Part shown: one piece after another, positions 12,106 to 29,357 of the stretch
How positions within the stretch are numbered: position 1 is the first letter of the stretch
Layout of the letters: every line of letters starts with the position of its first letter
NCBI GenBank assembly: GCA_015228935.1
Contig: JADGCO010000011.1
Span: 1,048 to 65,047, forward strand
DNA: 64,000 nucleotides
DNA from: Magnetococcales bacterium
Lineage (GTDB): Bacteria; Pseudomonadota; Magnetococcia; Magnetococcales; DC0425bin3
Direction: 5' to 3'
Translations under genes and position numbers: made by a program
Notes under the pieces: generated by a model
Databases searched by the model: none
The model's input: only the letters and a program-made list of their open reading frames with translations
Told to the model about the DNA's origin: nothing

Positions 12106-13247
12106 CCTGTTCCCTCCCGGCGCAGGGCCACGCCGATGGCCGGAAGACAGCGTGCCAGATCGATGTCATCCACCTTGGCCTCGATTTCCAGAATTTTATG
12201 CAAAGGGAGGTCTTTCAGGCGCATGCCCAGTTTGTCGGCCAGGACCGTATTGAGTCCATGAAACAGGACCGGGAGCGGGGCAATATGGACACTGCTGACG
12301 GGGGATTGGCTGAAATGGCTTTCGTAATAATCCAAGGTTCGTTGAATTTCCAGGACAATGGCATCCACCACGGGCGAGGCGGCCAGCTCTGTTTCCCCGG
12401 CATCTGCCCGACCGGCCAGGGATTCCAGCAACTGGTCCACACCATAATCCATGTGCCGGGAGAGATACATGACCCCTCCCCGCGTCACCTGCACCAACCC
12501 GTCACTGCGCCCCATGTAAAGCAGACCAATACCTTCGGCATCGTCCGGCACCATGGCAGTCAGGTTGCGCAGGGCCAATTCCAGAATGTCGATGGCAACA
12601 AGGGTCAAATGATTCATGTGAAACAGGCCGAAACAATCCTTGACCACATTTTCCCGGGCGGCCACCACGTAGATCATTTCCGGTTGGCCGGGACTCCGTT
12701 TTTGCGGCAGGTCAAACACATCGACCACGGCTTCCTGGGCCGAATAATCCAGGCGATCCTTGATCCGCCAACGCATGGCCGTGGCCAACTCTGCCCTGGC
12801 CACTTGCGGTGCCTCAGCCGGAAACATGGTATATTGGCCGGGAAAGAGCATGCCGGCAAAGCGACCATGGGACATTTCATAGGTTTTCAAGGTTTGACCG
12901 AGGGCCAACCTTTCTGTGCTGTCGCTTCCGGATGCCGATGATACAAAAAAACAATTTTTAAGAACAGGGGCCTCCCCCTCGCCCCGCCACACAATTCTGG
13001 CCACCCCATAGCCATCCGGGGAGACCGTCAAACCGATCAAGCCTTCCAGGACCTGCTTTTTAAACAATCCCAGAATTTTTCGTTTGAGACGTCGATCAAT
13101 CAAATTGACACGCCGCCGATTGGCACGCCGCTCCTCCCCCTTGTAACGGTGGCGCAGCAGCCACTCCAGCCAGACAGGTTTTCTCCGGTTGGTGACCTGA
13201 CGGCGATCCGGCTTCTTTCTTGAAAATTTTTTAAATGGATTCAACAC
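12102..13247 (-). CDS. mshI: PilM/MshI-like pilus assembly protein
   Basis: Actin-like PilM/MshI pattern (ELATAMRWRIKDRLDY..., VVAARENVV..., LVAIDILELALRNL). The ORF is open to 13397. However, a basic N-terminal region, GTG 13247/TTG 13244 and a candidate promoter at 13326-13341 all suggest a later start, so the start is uncertain. Confidence 0.7.
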   Translation of the reverse strand: MLNPFKKFSRKKPDRRQVTNRRKPVWLEWLLRHRYKGEERRANRRRVNLIDRRLKRKILGLFKKQVLEGLIGLTVSPDGYGVARIVWRGEGEAPVLKNCFFVSSASGSDSTERLALGQTLKTYEMSHGRFAGMLFPGQYTMFPAEAPQVARAELATAMRWRIKDRLDYSAQEAVVDVFDLPQKRSPGQPEMIYVVAARENVVKDCFGLFHMNHLTLVAIDILELALRNLTAMVPDDAEGIGLLYMGRSDGLVQVTRGGVMYLSRHMDYGVDQLLESLAGRADAGETELAASPVVDAIVLEIQRTLDYYESHFSQSPVSSVHIAPLPVLFHGLNTVLADKLGMRLKDLPLHKILEIEAKVDDIDLARCLPAIGVALRREGTG

Positions 13248-13325
13248 AGTGGCAACATCCCGACACCGGAATTCAACAAAGAACAAACAGTTACACGAGT
13301 TACCGAAAAAATTATTCCGATACCA

Positions 13326-13341
13326 TGCACATTGTGTGCCG
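13326..13341 (-). promoter_or_regulatory. Candidate sigma-54 (-24/-12) promoter for the msh operon
   Basis: The minus strand reads CGGCACACAATGTGCA, against the consensus TGGCAC-N5-TTGCA. GG and GC are at the correct spacing, about 80 nt upstream of the probable mshI start. Confidence 0.3.
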
Positions 13342-13419
13342 CGCAAACAAGTGCTACCTTCCCCCGCTGTCGTCCAGGATAAACAGGGAGCATGCACGCC
13401 CCCGGGAGAACAATATTAA

Positions 13420-14268
13420 ATGGCTGCCAAAACATACGATTGCTTCACTTTTTTTGATGAATTGGATCTCCTGGAAATCCGTCTGCATCATCTCTGGGAG
13501 TATGTTGATTTTTTTGTGCTGGTCGAAGGGGATCATACCTTCCGGGGCCAACCAAAGCCCTTTGTCTATGCAGAAAACAGGTCACGCTTCGCCTGGGCAG
13601 AGGCCAAAATCATCCATGTCCGCAAACAGTTCGATATTCGCGGCCTGAATTTTGCCCGCGCAACCAGATTCACGCAAAATGACGACAACTGGCGCATGGA
13701 ACACAACCAGCGCAACGCCATTCTGGATGGCCTGGGCAGTGCCGCTCCCGAAGATATCATCCTCATCAGTGATGTCGATGAAATTCCATCCCATTTTGTC
13801 ATGAGGCTTATCCACCGACTGCTCGGAGAGTTTCCCAGGCTTGCCTTCCAGCAGCAGCTCCACCGCTATTTTCTCGACTACAAGATGGTTGCGGACGCCA
13901 ACAATCAGGAATGTATCAATTCCACCGTCGTCACCCAGCGCCAATATCTTCTGACCCCGGAAGAGGAACGTGCGCAACGGTATAAACTCCCTTTCCTCAA
14001 GGATGGTGGTCAGCATTTTTCGTATCTGGGCGGTTTGAACAAGATTGTTCAGAAGCTCGAATCATTTTCGCACAGTGAATACGATACCGATTATTTCAAA
14101 GACAAGACTCGCATCCGGCAAAGAATCCTGGCTGGCAAGGCTTTGCACTCGGACCAGGAGCAATTTGTGCGCTATGCGGTCGAGTCCGATCCCCATTATC
14201 CGCCGTTCATTATTAAAAATCGCGACAGATACTATCATTTATTTTATTCTGAAGAAAATATTGCATGA
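13420..14268 (+). CDS. Glycosyltransferase family 17 (beta-1,4-N-acetylglucosaminyltransferase-like)
   Basis: The N-terminal signature YDCFTFFDELDLLEIRLHHLWEYVDFFVLVEGDHTFRGQPKP is typical of GT17. Confidence 0.8.
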   Translation: MAAKTYDCFTFFDELDLLEIRLHHLWEYVDFFVLVEGDHTFRGQPKPFVYAENRSRFAWAEAKIIHVRKQFDIRGLNFARATRFTQNDDNWRMEHNQRNAILDGLGSAAPEDIILISDVDEIPSHFVMRLIHRLLGEFPRLAFQQQLHRYFLDYKMVADANNQECINSTVVTQRQYLLTPEEERAQRYKLPFLKDGGQHFSYLGGLNKIVQKLESFSHSEYDTDYFKDKTRIRQRILAGKALHSDQEQFVRYAVESDPHYPPFIIKNRDRYYHLFYSEENIA

Positions 14269-14320
14269 AAAAATATCCATAAACTCTCAAATATAACAAA
14301 TCCGGATGAAAGATTTAATT

Positions 14321-14480
14321 TTGGCTTCGCCACAAACCCCATCAAAAAAAAGACTTTGTTGGGGCTTCGCCCCAAACCCCATCAGAAAAAAAGACTTTGT
14401 TGGGGCTTCGCCCCAAACCCCACCAAGAGGAAGGGCACAGCCCTTCCTCTTGGACCTCCATCCCAGTTTTTCAAACGTTT
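14321..14480. repeat. Intergenic structured repeat element: three tandem 38-41-bp modules plus a 31-nt perfect hairpin (first of two copies)
   Basis: The module ttggggcttcgccccaaaccccatcag-aaaaaaagactttg occurs three times (14321, 14359, 14400). It is followed by the hairpin CCAAGAGGAAGGGC-ACA-GCCCTTCCTCTTGG (14423-14453) and a T-run. The element lies between the convergent GT17 gene and queG. Confidence 0.85.
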
Positions 14481-14526
14481 TTTTTCCATGGGATGGCTGA
14501 ATTTTTCCTCTTTTTTTATTTTTTCT

Positions 14527-15480
14527 TTATTTGTTCTTCAATGCCATATCCAGATTCCTCAAAAACCGCTCCCTGCCCAGCCTTTTGATCGGCGATTGCC
14601 GGAATATTTCCCTGAATCTCCCCTCCTCCAGCGCCACAAAATCCGCCAATTTCGGTTCCTGCAACTCCGAACGCGGCAAAAAGTCGGTTTTTTGAGTCAC
14701 CGGAGCAAAACGATTGAAAGGACACACCGCCACACAATTGTCACAGCCATACACGCGATTGCCCAACACCTGTCGTCCCCTCTCAGGAAAGGCTCCCCGA
14801 GCTTCGATGGTCATATAGGCCAAGCACTGTCTGGCATCGAGCCTGTACGGTAGCGCTAACGACTGGGTCGGGCAGGCATCCTGGCAACGCCGGCAATCGC
14901 CACAATGATCCCGCTCCGGTTCATCCGGCGGCAAAGGCAGCGTCAAAAACAACTCCGCCAACAGCAGCCAGCACCCAAACCGACGGGATACCAAAAGGGT
15001 ATTTTTTCCCTGCCACCCCAAACCCGCCAGGACCGCCAATGGTTTTTCCATGACCGGAGCCGTGTCCACAAACATTCTGGCCGGCACCGGATGTCCCACC
15101 TCTCCTTCCAGCCACTGATGCACTTGATGTAATTGTTTTTTCAGGACCAGATGATAATCCCGATTGCGGGCGCAGGCCGCCACACTCATGGCTTCCGGGT
15201 CCTGCAAACTGTCCAGGGGATTGTCTGGCGGACGATAATTGGTACCCACCACCAGGATGGAACCAACCCCATCCAGCATGAGGGCTGGATTCTGGCGTTG
15301 TTCCACATGCCGTGCCATCCAGGTCATCTCACCCTGTCTCCCCGCAGCCAACCACTCGGCCAGATAGTGACCATTGGGCGGGGGATTTGGCGGGGCAAAA
15401 CCGGCCACATCAAACCCGACCAGCAGGGCCTGGCGGCGTAATTTTTCTTTCAGATCCACCCTGTTTATTCTTGTATCCAT
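14527..15480 (-). CDS. queG: Epoxyqueuosine reductase
   Basis: Two ferredoxin-type clusters, CGDCRRCQDACP and CDNCVAVCP, within QueG-like overall sequence. The start at ATG 15480 (MDTRINRVDLKEK) is preferred over the longer ORF. Confidence 0.85.
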   Translation of the reverse strand: MDTRINRVDLKEKLRRQALLVGFDVAGFAPPNPPPNGHYLAEWLAAGRQGEMTWMARHVEQRQNPALMLDGVGSILVVGTNYRPPDNPLDSLQDPEAMSVAACARNRDYHLVLKKQLHQVHQWLEGEVGHPVPARMFVDTAPVMEKPLAVLAGLGWQGKNTLLVSRRFGCWLLLAELFLTLPLPPDEPERDHCGDCRRCQDACPTQSLALPYRLDARQCLAYMTIEARGAFPERGRQVLGNRVYGCDNCVAVCPFNRFAPVTQKTDFLPRSELQEPKLADFVALEEGRFREIFRQSPIKRLGRERFLRNLDMALKNK

Positions 15481-15581
15481 GTCTGCCTGAACTTCATAAT
15501 TCTGTTGCCGATCAATGACAAAATATATTGAAATCAAAATGCCCAATCCACCCCATCCACACCCCCACCAACGAGTCAAGA

Positions 15582-16706
15582 ACCTGTTTCACGTGTAACC
15601 TTGCAAATGAACCAACAATTCACCTGGACTTGACGTGAACTATGAATCCCCATGATCTCGGCTATAACAAACTGTTTTCACAAGCCCAAATGGTCCAGGA
15701 CCTGATTAATGGCTTCATCAGGGAAGATTGGACCAAAGGCTTGGACTTTTTTACCCTGGAAAAAGTCAATCCGGTCTACGTCAGCGATGATTTTCGCAAA
15801 AGAATTGACGACCTCGTCTGGAAAATCCGCTGGCAGGGTACAGACAGGTGGCTGTACATCTATCTGATCCTGGAACCCCAGTCCACCGTCGATGACCTCA
15901 TGGCACTGCGCACCGATCTCTATACAAAACTCCTCTATCAGGATCTGCGCCAATCCGGAAAAATTCCGCACGGCCAAAAATTTCCCCCGGTCGCCCCCAT
16001 CGTGTTGTACAATGGCAAAAGTCGGTGGACAGCCGCCATGGATGTCGCCGACCTGATTGAGGAGTATCCCCCAGGTCTGGAAATCTGCCGCCCCCGGATG
16101 CGCTACCTGCTGATCGATGCGCACCACTACCAGAATGATGTATTGAGTTCGATGCACAATGTGGTGGCAGCACTGTTCAGATTGGAAAAAAGCCGCACTT
16201 TGGAAGATGTCCGGCAGGTGGTTCATGAATTGGATACCTGGCTGAAAAGTCCAGAACAAAAAGAACTGCGCCGGGCATTTGCCAGTTGGCTGGGGCAAAT
16301 CCTGCTGCCAAGACTGTCAAAAACAAATCCCGCCATTCCGGAAACCATCCCGGAAATGAACGACCTGAAGGAGGTTCATACCATGTTGGCAGAAACTGCG
16401 GAAAGATGGACCAGAGAGTGGAAACAGGAAGGACTCGACGAAGGACTCCAGAAAGGTAATGCCACAGCTCTGCTACGAATCCTGCGCCGTCGTCTCTCCA
16501 ATCTGCCCACATGGGTTGAACCAAAAGTTCATGCTGCCAATCTGGACACCCTCGATAAGTGGATAGACCGGGCCATCGATGCCCGCACATGGCAGGATGT
16601 TTTCGATGACGATGCGGCCAGCGAAATATCCGAATAGACCCCGTTACGTCCGGGCGGCCACCAGAATGTATTGGTAAACCAAAAGGTCTCGAAATTCAAA
16701 CTCATT
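15582..16706. repeat. Left copy of a ~1.12-kb direct repeat (Rpn gene plus 70 bp of methyltransferase 3' end)
   Basis: It aligns by eye with 19909-21030. It starts at (a/g)acctgtttcacgtgtaacct and ends at ...gaaattcaaactcatt. The core 15907-16396 is identical to 20231-20720. Confidence 0.9.
15642..16637 (+). CDS. Rpn family recombination-promoting nuclease / putative transposase (YhgA-like PD-(D/E)xK), copy 1
   Basis: N-terminal HDLGYNKLF, the motif ...DDLVWKIRW...YIYLILEPQST...MALR, and PIVLYNGKSRW. The C-terminal helical tail is DUF4351-like. Confidence 0.75.
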   Translation: MNPHDLGYNKLFSQAQMVQDLINGFIREDWTKGLDFFTLEKVNPVYVSDDFRKRIDDLVWKIRWQGTDRWLYIYLILEPQSTVDDLMALRTDLYTKLLYQDLRQSGKIPHGQKFPPVAPIVLYNGKSRWTAAMDVADLIEEYPPGLEICRPRMRYLLIDAHHYQNDVLSSMHNVVAALFRLEKSRTLEDVRQVVHELDTWLKSPEQKELRRAFASWLGQILLPRLSKTNPAIPETIPEMNDLKEVHTMLAETAERWTREWKQEGLDEGLQKGNATALLRILRRRLSNLPTWVEPKVHAANLDTLDKWIDRAIDARTWQDVFDDDAASEISE

Positions 16707-16816
16707 GACGTTCCCGGAATAAGTATTCGCTTCAGCTCAATAAAACTTTTTCTTGTATCCATATCCGCATAAACTTCATGATTCTGTTTCTGGCCAACGA
16801 TAAAATATATTGAAAG
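16640..16816 (-). pseudogene. Chimeric remnant: methyltransferase 3'-end fragment fused to a second copy of the queG leader and first codons
   Basis: 16640-16706 matches the 3' end of the gene at 20968. 16731-16816 matches 15455-15537 (the queG start, MDTR..., plus upstream sequence). The track ORF 16529-16864 reads across both fragments. Confidence 0.55.
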
Positions 16817-16850
16817 CAGGAGAAAAAACAGGATAGAATGGGGCTTATTT

Positions 16851-17924
16851 TTGTCAACTGCCAAGAAGATCCAGCCCGCACACGATGCCCCTATGGTCTA
16901 TTCATTCACGCCTAAAATATTCATCAGCTACTGCACCCGCTGCCCACTCTCCGTGCAATTCGGCGACCTGTTGAAAAAACGTCTGGAGGAAAACGGGTTT
17001 GAAACTTTTCTGGATCGCTCCTCTCTTGAGGGCGGGGATAATTTTGTCAATCGAATCCGTGAGGCCATTTCTTTTGACTGTCATGGAGGCATTCTGCTTC
17101 TCTCCAGGGCGGCAATGAATTCAAACTGGGTTGTCGATGAAGCAGTCCTTTTGATGGCCAGAAAACAATGGGTTAATAAATTAATAATCGTTCCGGCCCT
17201 GATTCCTCCGGTCAAATCCGTTGAACAATTTTTTGGCGAACGGAGCCGGCTTTGGCAATTATCCGATCTTCAGGGTGTTGTCGTTGCCCCTGATTGGCTG
17301 AAAAATCTGGGTCGATTATTGGGCCACCGGGTGATTTTTTATGCCCTTTCCGTCGTGCGACTGTTGGGGAGTGTTCGCAAGTCTGGCAATGATTCGGTCT
17401 TTTTTGGCCAGTTGGACAAACCTGTTGCCAGGATAATCAAGATATTAACGCCATTGAAGTCAATGGATTTTGAGGGGAAAAAGCTGCCTCTTGCCCCCTT
17501 CGTGACCCTCAAAAATGCCCAGGGTGTGCAACGTCTGGATCCCCGGGCGCGATTTTTGCCGCTCATTGGACGGGAAAGTGAGTTGCAAGAACTGGACGGC
17601 TGGTTGGAGGGAAAAAAACCCATCTCGGTACGGGGAATGATTGGCGATGCCGGGCGCGGCAAGACTCGTCTGGCCATGGAGTTGGTCCAGATCGTACAAA
17701 AACAGGGTTGGCATGCCGGGTTTTTGTCAAGTGAGATGTTGGAAAAATTGGTAACACAGGGAGAGAGTGGCTGGTCCCGGCCAACCCTGGCGGTGATTGA
17801 CGATGCTGCCTCCCATGCAATTCATCCAAAAATGGCTGAAGCAATTGGCCTCTTACCAGATGCAGATTTCAGAAAGCAAGAAAACCATTCCATTACGGAT
17901 TTTGCTGCTGGAGCGGGTAGCTGA
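16851..17924 (+). CDS. TIR domain plus P-loop (Walker A/B) N-terminal part of a STAND NTPase; the frame ends prematurely
   Basis: TIR-like IFISYCTR...FLDRSSLEGGDNF...LLLSRAAMNSNWVVDEA, Walker A GDAGRGKTRLA and Walker B LAVIDDA. The last ~40 codons look like out-of-frame read-through. Confidence 0.75.
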   Translation: MSTAKKIQPAHDAPMVYSFTPKIFISYCTRCPLSVQFGDLLKKRLEENGFETFLDRSSLEGGDNFVNRIREAISFDCHGGILLLSRAAMNSNWVVDEAVLLMARKQWVNKLIIVPALIPPVKSVEQFFGERSRLWQLSDLQGVVVAPDWLKNLGRLLGHRVIFYALSVVRLLGSVRKSGNDSVFFGQLDKPVARIIKILTPLKSMDFEGKKLPLAPFVTLKNAQGVQRLDPRARFLPLIGRESELQELDGWLEGKKPISVRGMIGDAGRGKTRLAMELVQIVQKQGWHAGFLSSEMLEKLVTQGESGWSRPTLAVIDDAASHAIHPKMAEAIGLLPDADFRKQENHSITDFAAGAGS

Positions 17925-19896
17925 AGAGGTAGCCGGTTGGTGGAAAACGTTGTTGGTGGGTTCTGGCCACTGGGAAGATGCCGATGTGAAAAACCTGTTT
18001 GATCCACCCTGGCCAGTACCTTTGGAAATGCTCTCCCCTGAGAAAGGGGAAGAAATAATGACCCGGATGGTGCAACTATCAGGGGCAGAGAAGAAGGAAA
18101 ATGAGCTGCCTTTTCCCGAGGCTGTGGAATGGCAGCGAGAACCGCTTTTTGCCATGATGGCCGGATATTTGCTGGCAGAAAAAATCCCCTTGCCCAAAAC
18201 CCGTGCCGCCATGGCCATCACTTTGGCCGGGTGGGAGAGTGGCCGTATTGCCAAGTTTGCGGAAAACCCAAAACAGGGAAGGCTTTTAAAGCATTTGGCT
18301 GCCTTTGCCACCTTGTGTGGTGGTTTGGATCAGGCACAACTACGTTCGGTAGCGCTAACAGAAAAGGAGGCCTTGGGTCTCCCTTCGGTGGGAGATCCAG
18401 GAACCCTGGCCGACCTATTGCACCAGGCCTTGCCGGGTCCGCACAATGGCGTCGATGCACTACGCCCGGACATCATGGGGGAAGCCTTGATCCTGGTTGC
18501 CCTGGGTGGTGACAACCCCGTGGATGCTGCGGCAGCCGTGCAACGCGCCTATACCTTGGCCGATAAAAAATGTATCTCATCCCTGATTCGCTGTGGCCAG
18601 GATTTTATTCATGCCGGGTACCAAAAACCCTTCGATTGGCTTGGTGGATTGATTGAGGATCCCAATATTTCCCTGGATATGCTGTGGAGTATTGAACGGG
18701 AACTGCCTCCCAACAGCCTTGGCCTGGATACTTTTGCCGCCAAGATTCAGAAGATAATATTGGGTCGCGTCAAATCGTTGATCACAGATGACAAAACCAA
18801 CGAATCCCTTCTTGTCATGCAAGCACGGGCAGCCAATAACCTGTCAAATTCTTTGGGTAACCTTGGCCAGCGGGAGAGTGCGCTGGAGGCTGTTGAGGAA
18901 GTAGTTCGGATTGATCGTGAATTGTCTGAGCATCATCCTGATGCATTTTTGCCTGATTTGGCATCGTCTCTCAACAACCTTTCTGGAAGATTGAGTGACT
19001 TTGGTCGGCGCAAGGATGCACTGGCAGCCATTGAGGAAGCGGTTCGGATACGCCGTGAATTGTCTGAGAGTCACCCTGACACATTTTTACCTGATTTGGC
19101 ATCGTCACTCAACAACCTGTCCGTCTCTCTGAGTGCCCTTGGCCGGCGCGAGGATGCACTGGAGGCAGCTAAGGAATCGGTTCGGATACGCCGCGAACTA
19201 TCTGAGTATCATCCTGACACATTTTTGCCTGTTTTGGCTTCTTCTCTCAACAACCTGTCTAACAGTTTGAGTGATCTTGGCCGGCACGAAGATGCGCTGG
19301 AGGCTATTGAGGAATCGGTTCGGATCTGTCACGAATTGTCTGAGCATCGTCCAGACGCATTTTTGCCTTATTTGGCTAAGTCGCTCAATAACCTGTCCGA
19401 CAGATTGCACGCCCTTGGCCGGCGCGAAAGAGCGCTAGATGCTATTGAGGAAGCGATCCAGATACGTCGTGCATTGTCGGTACGTCTTCCTGACGCATTC
19501 TTGCCCGATTTGGCCATGTCGCTCAACAACCTGTCCATCTTTCTGAGTACCCTTGGTCGGCACGAGGCTGCGCTGGAAGCTATTGAGGAAGCGGTTCAGT
19601 TCTATCGTGAATTGTCTGCGCGTTTTCCTGACGCATTTTTGCCTTATTTGGCCCAGTCGCTCAACAATCTATCCCTTACATTGATTGACCTTGGCCGGCG
19701 CGAGGATGCGCTAGAAACTGCAGAGGAGGCTGTGATAACCTTGGTACCGAATTTTTTGGATCTGCCGGAGGCTTTTGGGGAAAAGATGGGGATGTATGTG
19801 GGTAATTATGAAAAGGTGTTAAAGGAGTTGGATGCTAATCATAAAGAATATATTATGCCAATATTAATAATGGTCAAAAGACTCTTGCTTAATTGA
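17797..19896 (+). CDS. Continuation of the STAND NTPase (helical/winged-helix region) plus a TPR-like 46-aa repeat array
   Basis: It overlaps the previous ORF by 128 nt in the +1 frame. IPLRILLLER follows the Walker B region as expected for STAND proteins. There are six full units and one partial unit of LNNLSxxLSxLGRxEDALxAIEEAVxIRRELSxxxPDAFLPDLAxS. Confidence 0.75.
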   Translation: MTMLPPMQFIQKWLKQLASYQMQISESKKTIPLRILLLERVAEEVAGWWKTLLVGSGHWEDADVKNLFDPPWPVPLEMLSPEKGEEIMTRMVQLSGAEKKENELPFPEAVEWQREPLFAMMAGYLLAEKIPLPKTRAAMAITLAGWESGRIAKFAENPKQGRLLKHLAAFATLCGGLDQAQLRSVALTEKEALGLPSVGDPGTLADLLHQALPGPHNGVDALRPDIMGEALILVALGGDNPVDAAAAVQRAYTLADKKCISSLIRCGQDFIHAGYQKPFDWLGGLIEDPNISLDMLWSIERELPPNSLGLDTFAAKIQKIILGRVKSLITDDKTNESLLVMQARAANNLSNSLGNLGQRESALEAVEEVVRIDRELSEHHPDAFLPDLASSLNNLSGRLSDFGRRKDALAAIEEAVRIRRELSESHPDTFLPDLASSLNNLSVSLSALGRREDALEAAKESVRIRRELSEYHPDTFLPVLASSLNNLSNSLSDLGRHEDALEAIEESVRICHELSEHRPDAFLPYLAKSLNNLSDRLHALGRRERALDAIEEAIQIRRALSVRLPDAFLPDLAMSLNNLSIFLSTLGRHEAALEAIEEAVQFYRELSARFPDAFLPYLAQSLNNLSLTLIDLGRREDALETAEEAVITLVPNFLDLPEAFGEKMGMYVGNYEKVLKELDANHKEYIMPILIMVKRLLLN
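18832..19740. repeat. 138-bp (46-aa) tandem coding repeat, six full units plus one partial
   Basis: ctcaacaacct recurs at 18970 and 19108, a period of 138, and the protein-level repeat is obvious. Confidence 0.85.
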
Positions 19897-19908
19897 ATTG
19901 ATTGAAGG

Positions 19909-21030
19909 GACCTGTTTCACGTGTAACCTGCCAATAAAACACTGGTGTGAGTGTAATAATATCCCATGAATCCCCATGATCTCGGCTATACCAAACTGTT
20001 TTCACAAGCCCAAATGGTCCAGGACCTGATCAACGGCTTTATCCATGATGAATGGATCAAAGGGCTGGACTTTTCCACCCTGGAAAAAGTCAATCCGGTC
20101 TACGTGAGCGATGATTTTCGCAAACGCATCGATGACCTGGTCTGGAAAATCCGCTGGCAGGGTACAGACAGATGGCTGTACATCTATCTGATCCTGGAAC
20201 CCCAATCCACCGTCGATGACCTCATGGCCCTGCGCACCGATCTCTATACAAAACTCCTCTATCAGGATCTGCGCCAATCCGGAAAAATTCCGCACGGCCA
20301 AAAATTTCCCCCGGTCGCCCCCATCGTGTTGTACAATGGCAAAAGTCGGTGGACAGCCGCCATGGATGTCGCCGACCTGATTGAGGAGTATCCCCCAGGT
20401 CTGGAAATCTGCCGCCCCCGGATGCGCTACCTGCTGATCGATGCGCACCACTACCAGAATGATGTATTGAGTTCGATGCACAATGTGGTGGCAGCACTGT
20501 TCAGATTGGAAAAAAGCCGCACTTTGGAAGATGTCCGGCAGGTGGTTCATGAATTGGATACCTGGCTGAAAAGTCCAGAACAAAAAGAACTGCGCCGGGC
20601 ATTTGCCAGTTGGCTGGGGCAAATCCTGCTGCCAAGACTGTCAAAAACAAATCCCGCCATTCCGGAAACCATCCCGGAAATGAACGACCTGAAGGAGGTT
20701 CATACCATGTTGGCAGAAACCGCTGAAGGATGGACAAGAGAATGGTTGCAGCAAGGACGACAGGAAGGACGACAGGAAGGTAATGCTGCAACGCTGCTGC
20801 GAATCCTGCGCCGTCGTCTCGCCAATCTGCCTGCCTGGGTCGAACCAAAAGTTCATGCTGCCAACCTGGAGACCCTGGACAAGTGGATTGATCGGGCCAT
20901 TGATGCCCGCACATGGCAGGATGTTTTTGATGAGGAGACGTCCGGAGAAATATCCAGATAGACTCCGTTACGTCCCGGCGGCCACCAATATGTATTGGTA
21001 AACAAAAAGGTCTCGAAATTCAAACTCATT
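19909..21030. repeat. Right copy of the ~1.12-kb direct repeat
   Basis: See 15582-16706. The two copies share the same boundaries and a 490-bp identical core. Confidence 0.9.
19966..20961 (+). CDS. Rpn family recombination-promoting nuclease / putative transposase, copy 2
   Basis: 331 aa. The central ~165 aa is identical to copy 1, and the N- and C-terminal ends diverge. Confidence 0.75.
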   Translation: MNPHDLGYTKLFSQAQMVQDLINGFIHDEWIKGLDFSTLEKVNPVYVSDDFRKRIDDLVWKIRWQGTDRWLYIYLILEPQSTVDDLMALRTDLYTKLLYQDLRQSGKIPHGQKFPPVAPIVLYNGKSRWTAAMDVADLIEEYPPGLEICRPRMRYLLIDAHHYQNDVLSSMHNVVAALFRLEKSRTLEDVRQVVHELDTWLKSPEQKELRRAFASWLGQILLPRLSKTNPAIPETIPEMNDLKEVHTMLAETAEGWTREWLQQGRQEGRQEGNAATLLRILRRRLANLPAWVEPKVHAANLETLDKWIDRAIDARTWQDVFDEETSGEISR

Positions 21031-21648
21031 CAAGCCGGTGATGCACAAGCGTCCATTCGAAAATTCAGCCGGATAGCTGGCAGGGATCCGTCCGGAATAT
21101 TGTTCGTTGATATTTTCGAAAACACTGACAGGCCGATAACCTGCGGCGACAAGCATGTTGAGCATTTCGCGAATGGTGAAAAATCGCAGATGAGTTCGGT
21201 CAAGAATGCCACTCTCGGCGTAGGTCCAATGTCCTTCCACGAGACCATGGAGCATGCCGAAATAGCGCACATTGGGAATGCTGGTGATGAGAACACCCCG
21301 GGGTGCCAGAAAAGGCTTCAGACGCAACACAAGCGCCCATGGATCAACAAGATGCTCCAGAACATCCGCACACACAATGGCATCAAACTCCCCCAGTGAA
21401 AAATCCAGGGGCATGCTCGTCACGTCACCCGCATGCACAACATCCAGATATTTTCTGGCAAATTGCGCCGCCTCGGGATTGATCTCGACACCCACCACGC
21501 GGCTGATGCCTCGATCCTTCAACTCCTTGCCAAGCAGACCAGCCCCACAGCCGACATCCAGGACGTTCTGCGCCGATGCCGGAACACACTGAACCACTTC
21601 TGGACGTTCCCGAAAAAAATATTCGCTTACCGTGGGTTCGGATGCCAT
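20968..21648 (-). CDS. Class I SAM-dependent methyltransferase
   Basis: Motif I VLDVGCGAGLLG, an acidic loop VVGVEI and post-I DAIVCADVLEHLVDP. The start at ATG 21648 (MASEPTV) is more likely than the ORF maximum at 21693. Confidence 0.8.
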   Translation of the reverse strand: MASEPTVSEYFFRERPEVVQCVPASAQNVLDVGCGAGLLGKELKDRGISRVVGVEINPEAAQFARKYLDVVHAGDVTSMPLDFSLGEFDAIVCADVLEHLVDPWALVLRLKPFLAPRGVLITSIPNVRYFGMLHGLVEGHWTYAESGILDRTHLRFFTIREMLNMLVAAGYRPVSVFENINEQYSGRIPASYPAEFSNGRLCITGLNEFEFRDLFVYQYILVAAGT

Positions 21649-22375
21649 CTTGAACCACTCCTTCGACCATGGCCGTTCATGCAACGGCTGCACATGAATT
21701 CAACAATGGGATCCATCAATCGATCCAACAAGGCTTTCCATCCCTGCCGGGAACACGGCACACCATTCCCCTGCATCGCCGACCGGGCCAGATACGTATT
21801 CTCCACAGTCACATTTTACGGAGCAACATTATGCCATTCCAGAAGGTGGCATGGCAGTTGTGGGCAGAATAACAGCATGAAGCTCTGGAGATTCGGCAAC
21901 AAATCGAAAGATCATTCCGCACAATACGTGCCAATAATTTCAGACGATACGAACAGCAATCCACTGCATGTCAGGGTCCGCAATGACGTCTTGATTCTGC
22001 CAATCCTGTGTCACCCATGAATCCCCGCTCCTGAAACAATGTTTGGCCAGTGCAATCGCATTTGAAATCCGGCCATTGATCAGACAGGTTTTACACGCCG
22101 TGGAATATTGTACAGTCTCAAACTGTCCTGGAATCGCGGGCATCCTCCCTGCCATTTGCGGACCGGATGCCCGCGCTTCCAGGCAAATTCAGAGGTCAAC
22201 CAACACAAGGAGTCACAATCGCTACCTGAAAGAAATTTGGAATTCAAATGCGATTGCCCAGATGTCAGGCAAAGGGGTTTGAGAAGTCGCGCCGGCTCTG
22301 GTAACGTGACGGGTTCACGCGAGTTGACGGCTGGCCCGACACTCGCTCCAGACCTTCAGCACGAGGAGTCATCCC

Positions 22376-23257
22376 ATGGCAGACACCGAAGGGACCCAGG
22401 ATATCCACGACTACCATCTCGATATTCCGGTCAAAAACCGCCCCTTTCATCTCAAAGGATGCCACGCCCTGGATTGGGGCATGCAAAACCGGCTGGCCAA
22501 TATTTTTGATGCGGTCTCCGGAAAAACCGTCATGCTGGCCGTGGACCATGGCTATTTCATGGGACCCACCACCGGTCTGGAGCGGATGGATGTCAATATT
22601 GTCCCGTTGCTGGCCCATGCCGACACCCTCATGTGTACCCGTGGCATCCTGCGCAGTACCATGCCCTCGACCTTCAGCCGGGGCGTCGTGTTGCGCGCCA
22701 GCGGCGGCCCGAGCATCCTCAAGGAACTCTCCAACGAAGAGATTGCCATGAATATCGAGGATGCCCTGCGCCTGAATGCCTCGGCAGTGGCCGTCCAGGT
22801 GTTCATCGGCGGCGAATTTGAAACCCGCTCCGTCCACAACATGACCCGCCTCGTCGATGTGGGCAATCGCTATGGCATGCCCGTCCTGGGCGTCACCGCC
22901 GTGGGCAAGGAGATGGTCCGGGATGCCAAATACATGCGCCTGGCCAGCCGGATTTGCGCCGAACTGGGAGCGAGCTACGTCAAAACCTACTATGTGGCCG
23001 AAGGGTTCGAAACCGTCACCGCCTCCTGCCCGGTGCCCATCGTCATCGCCGGTGGCAAAAAACAACCGGAACTCGATGCCCTGCGCATGGCCTACAATGC
23101 CATCCAGCAAGGTGCCGCCGGCGTGGACATGGGACGCAATATTTTCCAGGCCGACGCCCCCACCGCCATGATCCTGGCCGTGCGCAAAGTGGTCCATGAA
23201 GGAATCAGACCGGAAGAAGCCTTCAATTATTATAACTCGCTGAAGGCCAAAGGCTGA
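22376..23257 (+). CDS. DhnA/LsrF-type class I aldolase family protein (LsrF-like thiolase/aldolase)
   Basis: Near-colinear with E. coli LsrF as I recall it: FxLKGCxALDWGMQxRL, [17 protein letters not shown], [19 protein letters not shown]. Confidence 0.75.
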
Positions 23258-29232: not shown

Positions 29233-29271
29233 TGAAACTCATGAGTTGAAAAATTGGATAAAAATTTTTTA

Positions 29272-29357
29272 TTGGGGCTCCGCCCCAAACCCCGCCAGGG
29301 GGAAGGGCGCAGCCCTTCCCCCTGGACCCCCTTCCCAGTCTTTCATTTGTTTTTTTT
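29272..29357. repeat. Second copy of the structured intergenic repeat element seen at 14321-14480
   Basis: Reads ttggggctccgccccaaaccccg, then the hairpin CCAGGGGGAAGGGC-GCA-GCCCTTCCCCCTGG (29295-29325), then ...tcccagtctttca...tttttttt. The differences in the stem are compensatory. Confidence 0.85.

Follow-up and report, generated by a model that had tools for sequence, protein, structure and literature searches.

A pair of rpn nuclease genes around a TIR-STAND gene in Magnetococcales: probable tandem segmental duplication and partial gene conversion

Introduction

How did two copies of a nuclease gene come to stand on either side of a third, unrelated gene, and can they move it? The question is raised by a 64,000-nt stretch of DNA from a Magnetococcales bacterium (GenBank assembly GCA_015228935.1, contig JADGCO010000011.1, positions 1,048 to 65,047 of the forward strand), called the window here. 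In it, two rpn genes in direct orientation flank a gene of the TIR-STAND type with C-terminal TPR repeats. An earlier reading of the letters, hereafter the original prediction, had described a composite-like layout in which the Rpn repeats carry the TIR-STAND cargo, and had proposed gene conversion between older duplicates. We find that the locus is probably a small rpn array that arose by an old tandem segmental duplication and was later homogenised in part by gene conversion.

The rpn loci are genes within genes: an internal start yields RpnS, a small protein from the C-terminal part, and RpnS inhibits the full-length product RpnL, a toxic nuclease (Zhong 2023, PMC10400941). The RpnS helix holds four-residue repeats that start 8-20 residues after its methionine and vary in number among strains; they determine the specificity of RpnL-RpnS pairing (PMC10400941). 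Tandem direct duplication of genomic regions is reported as the origin of rpn arrays, with neither inverted repeats nor target-site duplications (TSDs), and Rpn proteins were judged unlikely to be transposases (PMC10400941).

An identical tract inside diverged rpn copies

The window contains two direct repeats, 15582-16706 and 19910-21030, both confirmed by blastn; the second begins one base later than the 19909 first given. From the start codon of rpn to the end of each repeat (15642-16706 and 19966-21030) they align without gaps over 1065 nt at 93.4% identity, and the stretches upstream (15582-15614 and 19910-19941) at 88%. As had been described, the repeats start with a shared 20-mer and have a common end, gaaattcaaactcatt, at 16706 and 21030. 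Between the 20-mer and each ATG the copies cannot be aligned over ~25-40 nt.

Within the repeats lies a run of exact identity of 491 nt (15906-16396 and 20230-20720), one base longer at its start than the 490 bp originally counted. It spans codons 89-251 and includes the internal Shine-Dalgarno sequence and ATG discussed below. The two coding sequences (CDSs), of 996 nt each, differ at 65 positions, none of them inside this run. When 65 mismatches were placed randomly in 20,000 trials, the longest run measured 69 nt on average and 225 nt at most. Synonymous divergence (dS) is 0 over the 114 synonymous sites of the core, and rises to 0.33 in codons 1-88 and to 0.47 in codons 252-331. No identical run above 75 nt occurs in the other paralog pairs among the relatives.

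An over-long tract of identity with homogenised synonymous sites, here read from a short-read assembly, supports ordinary gene conversion between old paralogs as its probable origin. The proposed mosaic thus holds up in pairwise alignment, where divergence is clearly uneven. Outside the core, the density of mismatches is itself patchy: on the 5' side it runs from ~1.5% (15642-15706) through 17% (15707-15815) to 3% (15816-15905), and on the 3' side, going downstream, from 22% through 14% to 8-10%. This suggests older or repeated conversion events of differing ages. The ratio omega between the copies is 0.13-0.27, from which we take both to be under purifying selection.

A comparable pattern appears in two rpn paralogs of a single metagenome-assembled genome (MAG), HA3dbin1 (loci L006 and L008), that share 90-96% identity at codon-alignment positions ~450-810 and 77-89% elsewhere. 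Ahead of the C-terminal domain their identity drops once more. The better-conserved stretch may be a conversion tract of greater age, limited on its 3' side in a similar way.

A duplication joint between two neighbour genes

The origin of the repeats can be read at their edges, that lie in the genes next to rpn. On the right, the final 63 nt of the second repeat (20968-21030) belong to a methyltransferase CDS on the minus strand, as its last 21 codons. An orphan counterpart follows the first rpn copy: its translation, NEFEFRDLLVYQYILVAART, compares with the C-terminus of the real methyltransferase, NEFEFRDLFVYQYILVAAGT, each ending at a stop codon. On the left, the first ~16 codons of queG (tRNA epoxyqueuosine reductase), whose true start is probably the ATG at 15481, form the edge of the first duplicated unit together with the region upstream. 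A decayed copy, covering the start codon, the first codons and 55 nt of upstream region, stands at 16715-16818 and matches 15434-15536 with 74% identity over 104 columns (82% over a 72-nt core).

The two remnants meet within 16707-16714, so that the order across the joint is methyltransferase 3' fragment, 8 nt, queG 5' fragment, head to tail. Since the two fragments are joined within 8 nt, we read the repeat limits as the breakpoints of a tandem duplication of the segment running from the 5' part of queG to the 3' part of the methyltransferase gene. Unit 1 would then extend over 15434-16706 and unit 2 over 16715-21030, the latter longer by 3.09 kb that correspond to the TIR-STAND gene. In unit 2, this gene sits between the queG-upstream remnant and the upstream motif of rpn.

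Rpn family membership and predicted internal RpnS

Both rpn genes are intact, and NCBI names their products 'Rpn family recombination-promoting nuclease/putative transposase'. The Pfam family PF04754 (Transposase_31/YhgA-like) matches residues 2-207 of both proteins at 88-90 bits, well above its cutoff of 21 bits. Identity to E. coli RpnA is 23-24% only; still, the residues D11, D63, E82, Q84, R94 and D165 (PDDE) of RpnA, whose mutation altered its activity (PMC5350276), are all invariant in an alignment with both copies. These observations support the view, already put forward in the original prediction, that both repeats encode Rpn/YhgA-like PD-(D/E)xK nucleases (COG5464), and the pair appears to form a divergent branch of the family. 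A sequence search of the PDB returned no solved relative. Relatives of the first copy were collected from 19 loci on genome contigs (at most 78% identity) and 8 on metagenome contigs (at most 57%).

Each gene also holds the signature of an internal RpnS. A ribosome-binding site (RBS), AAGGAGG, stands 8 nt before an in-frame ATG at M248, from which a protein of 84 residues is predicted. The arrangement GGAGG-N8-ATG is kept in 13 of the 13 homologs examined, one of them from Holophagales, and M248 falls within one residue of the internal translation initiation site (iTIS) of RpnA, M244 (PMC10400941), in the alignment. Four-residue repeats start 13 residues further on in both copies. At the same position of the protein alignment, homologs hold between 0 and ~10 units of (Q/K)(E/K)G(L/R), and DNA similarity to 17 relatives ends where the repeats start, at 16422-16457. 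The window has three units and the closely related strain described below has two. With an internal RBS and start, and with repeats at 8-20 residues from the methionine in varying number, the locus belongs, as far as its sequence tells, to the RpnL/RpnS family.

The C-terminal peptides KQEGLDEGLQKGNATA and LQQGRQEGRQEGNAAT differ as was claimed. They are not a case of plain drift: the difference falls in the known hypervariable region of four-residue repeats of RpnS, and 18 of the 84 residues distinguish RpnS1 from RpnS2. The identical tract stops at 16396, 11 nt past the internal ATG. The homogenised part thus comprises the C-terminal two-thirds of the nuclease and linker region with the internal RBS and start, and the differing part is essentially the RpnS frame. 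The simplest cause of this limit would be mechanical, the fast-evolving C-terminal DNA being too diverged for a heteroduplex to extend further. Selection against merging two antitoxin specificities is an attractive alternative, which we do not treat as established from a single case.

In Magnetococcus sp. DMHC-6, a full rpn gene is followed after ~1.3 kb by a stand-alone match to the Rpn C-terminal domain only (locus L001, 3188-3367; aa 265-324, 47% identity), reminiscent of the separate rpnSs genes of E. coli (PMC10400941). A candidate second case of two Rpn genes around an insert, at L011 1492-5030 in MAG nHA4bin8, was rejected: there, an IS66-family element with three ORFs (open reading frames), one of which encodes a 543-aa transposase, splits one rpn gene.

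The motif upstream of rpn

The 20-mer with which both repeats start, ACCTGTTTCACGTGTAACCT, is found at 15582 and 19910, and the near-palindrome originally noted is also there, a 6/7 inverted pair (GTTTCAC/GTGTAAC) around CACGTG. The 20-mer occurs exactly twice in the 64-kb window, where 0.01 occurrences are expected even with 3 mismatches allowed. Four unrelated rpn genes of Magnetococcales (loci L002, L006, L009 and L010) have a related motif, TGTTTCA-N9-10-TGCCAA, at -56 to -60 from the ATG. From this recurrence we read the motif as probably a promoter or operator and not the terminus of an element. A generic scan for sigma-70 promoters and terminators stayed within its shuffled background, and no promoter was assigned.

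A single-rpn contig in a related strain

The window and Magnetococcus sp. DMHC-1 (GCA_039908575.1), a MAG assembled from Illumina MiSeq reads (PMC9840458), encode QueG proteins with 100% identity. The flanks of the two differ by patchy single-nucleotide polymorphisms (SNPs) at ~0.3-0.5%, which makes DMHC-1 a different strain or sample. On its contig JAMOAV010000035.1, queG is followed by one rpn gene, intact and in frame (327 aa), and by the methyltransferase gene, with no TIR-STAND gene between them. The rpn gene is chimeric: all diagnostic sites before the core are of the copy-1 type, and those after it of the copy-2 type. With respect to the core of the window it has four private, clustered substitutions, at 16139, 16199-16200 and 16205, and a 12-nt deletion removes exactly one four-residue repeat.

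The single-Rpn, cargo-less product that had been predicted thus exists as a contig. An assembler facing a path A-R-X-R-B commonly yields A-R-B and a separate X, and such loop-skipping accounts for the contig no less well than a true deletion would. A second DMHC-1 contig, JAMOAV010000101.1 (locus L021, 3156 nt), matches positions 16320-19370 of the window, with 100% identity over 16320-18329, and carries the 3' end of copy 1, the duplication joint and a frameshifted TIR-STAND gene. Its start at 16320 lies 77 nt before the end of the core, as fits a branching vertex of a de Bruijn graph with k = 77. The pair of contigs is equally compatible with loop-skipping, with a mixed population, and with a deletion allele accompanied by a circle. 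The collections of genomes and metagenomes yielded no further near-identical contigs.

Differences between the window and DMHC-1 come in patches: 12 synonymous SNPs in queG (14862-15144), the 4 in the rpn core (16139-16205) and 26 SNPs within 380 nt of the STAND domain (18330-18710). Patches of this kind amid kilobases of perfect identity suggest imports by recombination. We examined whether the STAND patch was copied from the paralog P0121 and rejected this source, whose identity there is merely 77-78%. The contig JAMOAV010000035.1 ends inside a cluster of ~40-nt repeats near 14400. The contig JAMOAV010000101.1 departs from the window inside the TPR repeats, at 19370, and continues with 105 nt of unrelated sequence (L021 3052-3156), in which the ORF MNTTDTDGRKLSHKTLEEIR starts; this may be an insertion of an insertion sequence (IS) or an assembly chimera. 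A further paralog of the TIR-STAND gene, P0127, lies on a DMHC-1 contig, outside of this window.

Alternative explanations

The window comes from a short-read MAG, in which a shared graph node would be written twice, and the perfect core could therefore be an artefact, with genes in truth evenly diverged or a contig path wrongly joined and no recent gene conversion. Both the window and DMHC-1 are short-read metagenome assemblies, the path taken through the same graph is A-R-X-R-B in the former but A-R-B and a separate X in the latter, and the four clustered differences of the DMHC-1 core could be collapsed copy-specific variants. However, a core diverged by 9-17%, like its flanks, could not have merged into one graph node, and the independent DMHC-1 data place the branch point at the identical base, with a cargo contig that starts at 16320, that is, 16397 minus 77; it is for these two reasons that the inference of conversion stands. 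In DMHC-1 a copy-1-type 5' flank joins the same core, and a hidden divergence, at most ~1%, would still put the core at least ten-fold below the flanks. We hold an artefact to be quite improbable.

Equally far from what we expect is a composite, transposon-like or excisable cassette, the cargo of which Rpn or recombination would carry, excise or swap. Direct repeats with 491 identical nt are a good substrate for deletion, the DMHC-1 contig with queG, chimeric Rpn and methyltransferase is exactly the predicted deletion product, and overexpressed RpnA stimulates RecA-independent recombination (PMC5350276). Against this, the limits of the repeats are fragments of queG and the methyltransferase gene placed head to tail and not the termini of an element, unrelated rpn paralogs have the motif of the 5' limit as an upstream element at a like position, and Rpn proteins have been judged not to be transposases (PMC10400941). 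The composite-like reading is not supported. A repeat search found no terminal inverted repeats at the repeat limits, nor were defined ends with a TSD seen. The same element was not found at other sites: only two copies exist in the 64 kb, and the 27 related Rpn loci share the CDS but never its flanks or the cargo, with a TIR-STAND, queG or methyltransferase homolog near none of the 27. No pair of Rpn genes brackets the TIR-STAND paralog P0121, the cargo of the window is frameshifted, and the DMHC-1 bin holds that cargo as well, on a contig whose first base lies 77 nt within the core. As for a cargo-less allele, which the comparison of related genomes was to reveal, it is absent from the 19 genome-contig loci (at most 78% identity), which have neither flanks nor cargo nor motif in common with the window, and the 8 metagenome loci (at most 57%) include no population variants; DMHC-1 does have a cargo-less contig. 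Excision of the cargo by recombination between the repeats is plausible but unproven.

The DMHC-1 contig may nonetheless be a real haplotype of the population, produced by RecA-dependent unequal recombination in the identical core, which would add to the history of duplication and conversion rather than replace it. Its chimeric rpn gene is in frame and intact with 327 aa; the contig crosses the whole repeat, although the same assembly broke at the much shorter 40-nt cluster near 14400; and its own SNPs and one-unit repeat deletion set its reads apart from those of the window. On the other hand, the excised-looking segment is found in the same bin, on a separate contig that starts at a k = 77 vertex, a classic output of loop-skipping, and the scans of metagenomes and genomes gave no further near-identical contigs. 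On balance we lean slightly against a true haplotype.

A broader proposal joins these elements: the toxin module would be freely homogenised and the exchange stopped at the RpnS start by selection for non-cross-reacting antitoxins, i.e. two orthogonal specificities, while the repeats would act as a population-level switch that deletes the TIR-STAND gene (possibly re-inserting it from a 4.3-kb circle), with the cargo-less DMHC-1 contig as a real haplotype. We consider the conjunction unlikely.

Several points weigh against a duplicated RpnL/RpnS array with a converted core. The identity of 100% read for the core is an upper bound, as collapse could hide a difference of up to ~1%, and the four core sites that differ between the window and DMHC-1 are candidates for collapsed copy-specific variants. 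No outgroup locus shows the state before duplication; the queG orthologs of other genera (68-69% identity) are not syntenic. The NCBIfam model TIGR01784 stays below its cutoff of 52.1, with 24.9 bits for copy 2 and no match for copy 1, and PADLOC, that has no Rpn model, returned no match for the Rpn proteins. The end of the tract near the iTIS is one observation, with a chance of ~3% to fall within 15 nt on either side by accident. Finally, expression of RpnS and a toxin-antitoxin function would be carried over to this lineage by analogy.

Proposed history of the locus

The evidence is best accommodated by the following scenario. An ancestral unit with one rpn gene, reaching from inside the 5' end of queG to inside the 3' end of the methyltransferase gene, would have been tandemly duplicated. 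Either unit 2 would have gained the TIR-STAND-TPR gene (3.1 kb) by insertion or unit 1 would have lost it, an order of events that we infer; the gene is now frameshifted. Each rpn gene would be a two-in-one defence gene of the toxin-antitoxin type, made of an RpnL endonuclease of 331 aa and of an RpnS of 84 aa translated from M248; by analogy with E. coli, RpnS would bind and inhibit its cognate RpnL through the helix of four-residue repeats. Recently, a non-reciprocal homologous exchange would have removed every difference along 491 nt that encode nuclease and linker, leaving the copies with distinct specificity modules beyond the tract.

The TIR-STAND-TPR gene

The gene between the rpn copies is present as predicted, with TIR_2 and TPR_10 matches above the Pfam cutoffs, but it is split by a frameshift into two ORFs. 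The first (16851-17924) encodes the TIR domain and an NTPase with Walker A (GDAGRGKT) and Walker B (LAVIDD) motifs; the second (17797-19896) the helical part and the TPR array, in which six 138-nt repeats at 18834-19823 give seven or so TPR_10 units. For the NTPase, only AAA_16 matches, below threshold, and homologs at ~40% identity match nSTAND_NTPase5. Beyond the TIR domain, PADLOC has no system model that fits the gene.

Three full-length paralogs (P0121-P0123, 923-936 aa) align with the gene in two frames, switching at 17809-17825, where the frame of a single TIR, STAND NTPase and repeat-sensor polypeptide is broken. The frameshift is real and not a sequencing error, because the identical one occurs in the DMHC-1 contig JAMOAV010000101.1, which was assembled independently and from another strain. 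If nothing bypasses the frameshift, this is probably a pseudogene. The genomic context of P0121 includes an Rpn gene 8 kb off on the other strand.

Compared with P0121 (923 aa), the linker between the TIR domain and the NTPase carries an insertion of ~38 aa (APDWLKNLGRLLGHRVIFYALSVVRLLGSVRKSGNDSVFFGQ; window 17290-17410, ~aa 148-186 of the TIR ORF).

Relation to known systems

The RpnL/RpnS family, rpn arrays formed by tandem duplication and gene conversion between paralogs are already known. Modestly new are a joint legible within 8 nt and a conversion tract whose limit falls at the beginning of the antitoxin module.

The closest counterparts are the antiphage systems RpnA-E and the plasmid-borne RpnP2 of E. 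coli (PMC5350276, PMC10400941), with which the window pair shares the N-terminal PF04754 domain and the key residues of RpnA, an internal RBS and ATG (M248 here, M244 in RpnA), repeats 13 residues after the methionine, a repeat number that varies between strains and paralogs, and many paralogs per genome. It differs in its low identity to RpnA (23-24%), in a C-terminal match to DUF4351, in the direct pairing of two paralogs with a converted core, and in that the Magnetococcales genes are known from sequence. The locus resembles the published rpn arrays (Zhong 2023, PMC10400941) in its direct chromosomal duplication without TSDs or inverted repeats, the ends being set by the duplication and not by the gene; unlike them, it has a joint legible within 8 nt between two identifiable neighbour genes, and units that differ by a 3.1-kb TIR-STAND gene.

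The tufA/tufB genes and rRNA operons undergo concerted evolution by RecA-dependent gene conversion. Old paralogs, a sharply bounded tract of identity and homogenised synonymous sites are common to these and to the rpn pair, whose tract, however, covers part of a gene and ends at an internally translated, fast-evolving module. With composite transposons, made of two IS copies, the locus shares two direct copies of a gene annotated as 'putative transposase' around a cargo; it departs from them in the absence of terminal inverted repeats, of a TSD and of known transposase activity of the Rpn fold, and in limits that are fragments of neighbour genes. Bacterial TIR-STAND and NLR-like defence proteins combine nSTAND NTPases in architectures of the Avs or bNACHT type. 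The cargo has a similar TIR effector, Walker A/B NTPase and C-terminal TPR sensor array, but its NTPase exceeds no Pfam threshold and the gene is frameshifted in both assemblies.

The locus thus offers a base-resolved example of how an rpn array may form, and supports the published view of local segmental duplication, not transposition. It extends the gene-within-gene signature of RpnL/RpnS to Magnetococcales, with repeats that differ even between ~99.5% identical strains. That the tract ends at the internal start is a hint of different recombination regimes for the toxin and the antitoxin modules in paralogous rpn genes. For users of MAGs the locus is also a caution: a repeat resolved differently in the short-read assemblies of two near-identical strains can mimic a presence/absence polymorphism of an immune gene. 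If the DMHC-1 haplotype is true, the cargo is polymorphic in nature.

Coordinates of features and neighbouring repeats

Table 1 Features of the rpn locus, in window coordinates.
Feature	Coordinates	Strand	Basis or remark
queG (tRNA epoxyqueuosine reductase), left neighbour	14527..15481	-	Pfam QueG_DUF1730 and Fer4_16
Original queG 5' CDS and upstream segment	15434..15536		Decayed repeat at 16715-16818
Conserved motif ACCTGTTTCACGTGTAACCT of rpn copy 1	15582..15601	+	-60 from ATG; candidate promoter/operator
rpn copy 1, full-length RpnL, 331 aa, MBF0135548.1	15642..16637	+	PF04754 87.6 bits; DUF4351 weak
Identical tract, copy 1	15906..16396	+	Exact run, permutation, dS = 0
Predicted RpnS1, 84 aa	16368..16637	+	AAGGAGG 16368-16374, 8-nt spacer, ATG 16383 (M248)
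Copy 1 repeats KQEG-LDEG-LQKG	16422..16457	+	Start 13 residues after M248
Orphan methyltransferase 3' end, right edge of unit 1	16644..16706	-	Reads NEFEFRDLLVYQYILVAART, then stop
Orphan decayed queG start codon region and upstream, left edge of unit 2	16715..16818	-	Repeat search, local alignment
TIR / P-loop STAND-like NTPase / TPR gene	16893..19896	+	Pfam TIR_2, TPR_10; 1-nt frameshift
Upstream motif of rpn copy 2	19910..19929	+	-56 from ATG; 14 nt after TIR-STAND stop codon
rpn copy 2, full-length RpnL, 331 aa, MBF0135550.1	19966..20961	+	PF04754 90.1 bits; DUF4351 25.6 bits
Identical tract, copy 2	20230..20720	+	Exact run equal to copy 1 tract
Predicted RpnS2, 84 aa	start ATG 20707	+	AAGGAGG, 8-nt spacer, ATG (M248)
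Copy 2 repeats LQQG-RQEG-RQEG	20746..20781	+	Start 13 residues after M248
Class I S-adenosylmethionine (SAM) methyltransferase, right neighbour	20968..21693	-	Pfam Methyltransf_23, E = 7e-20

Rfam gave no matches within 13000-23000. Between a GT17 glycosyltransferase gene and queG, positions 14300-14433 hold three direct repeats of ~40 nt (GGGGCTTCGCCCCAAACCCCATCA...AAAAAAGACTTTGTT). The cluster has a second copy of ~100 nt (82%) at 29257-29357 and a 28-nt exact match in Magnetococcus sp. YQC-5 (locus L015, 81-108), and looks like a dispersed element of the repetitive extragenic palindrome (REP) or miniature inverted-repeat transposable element (MITE) kind.

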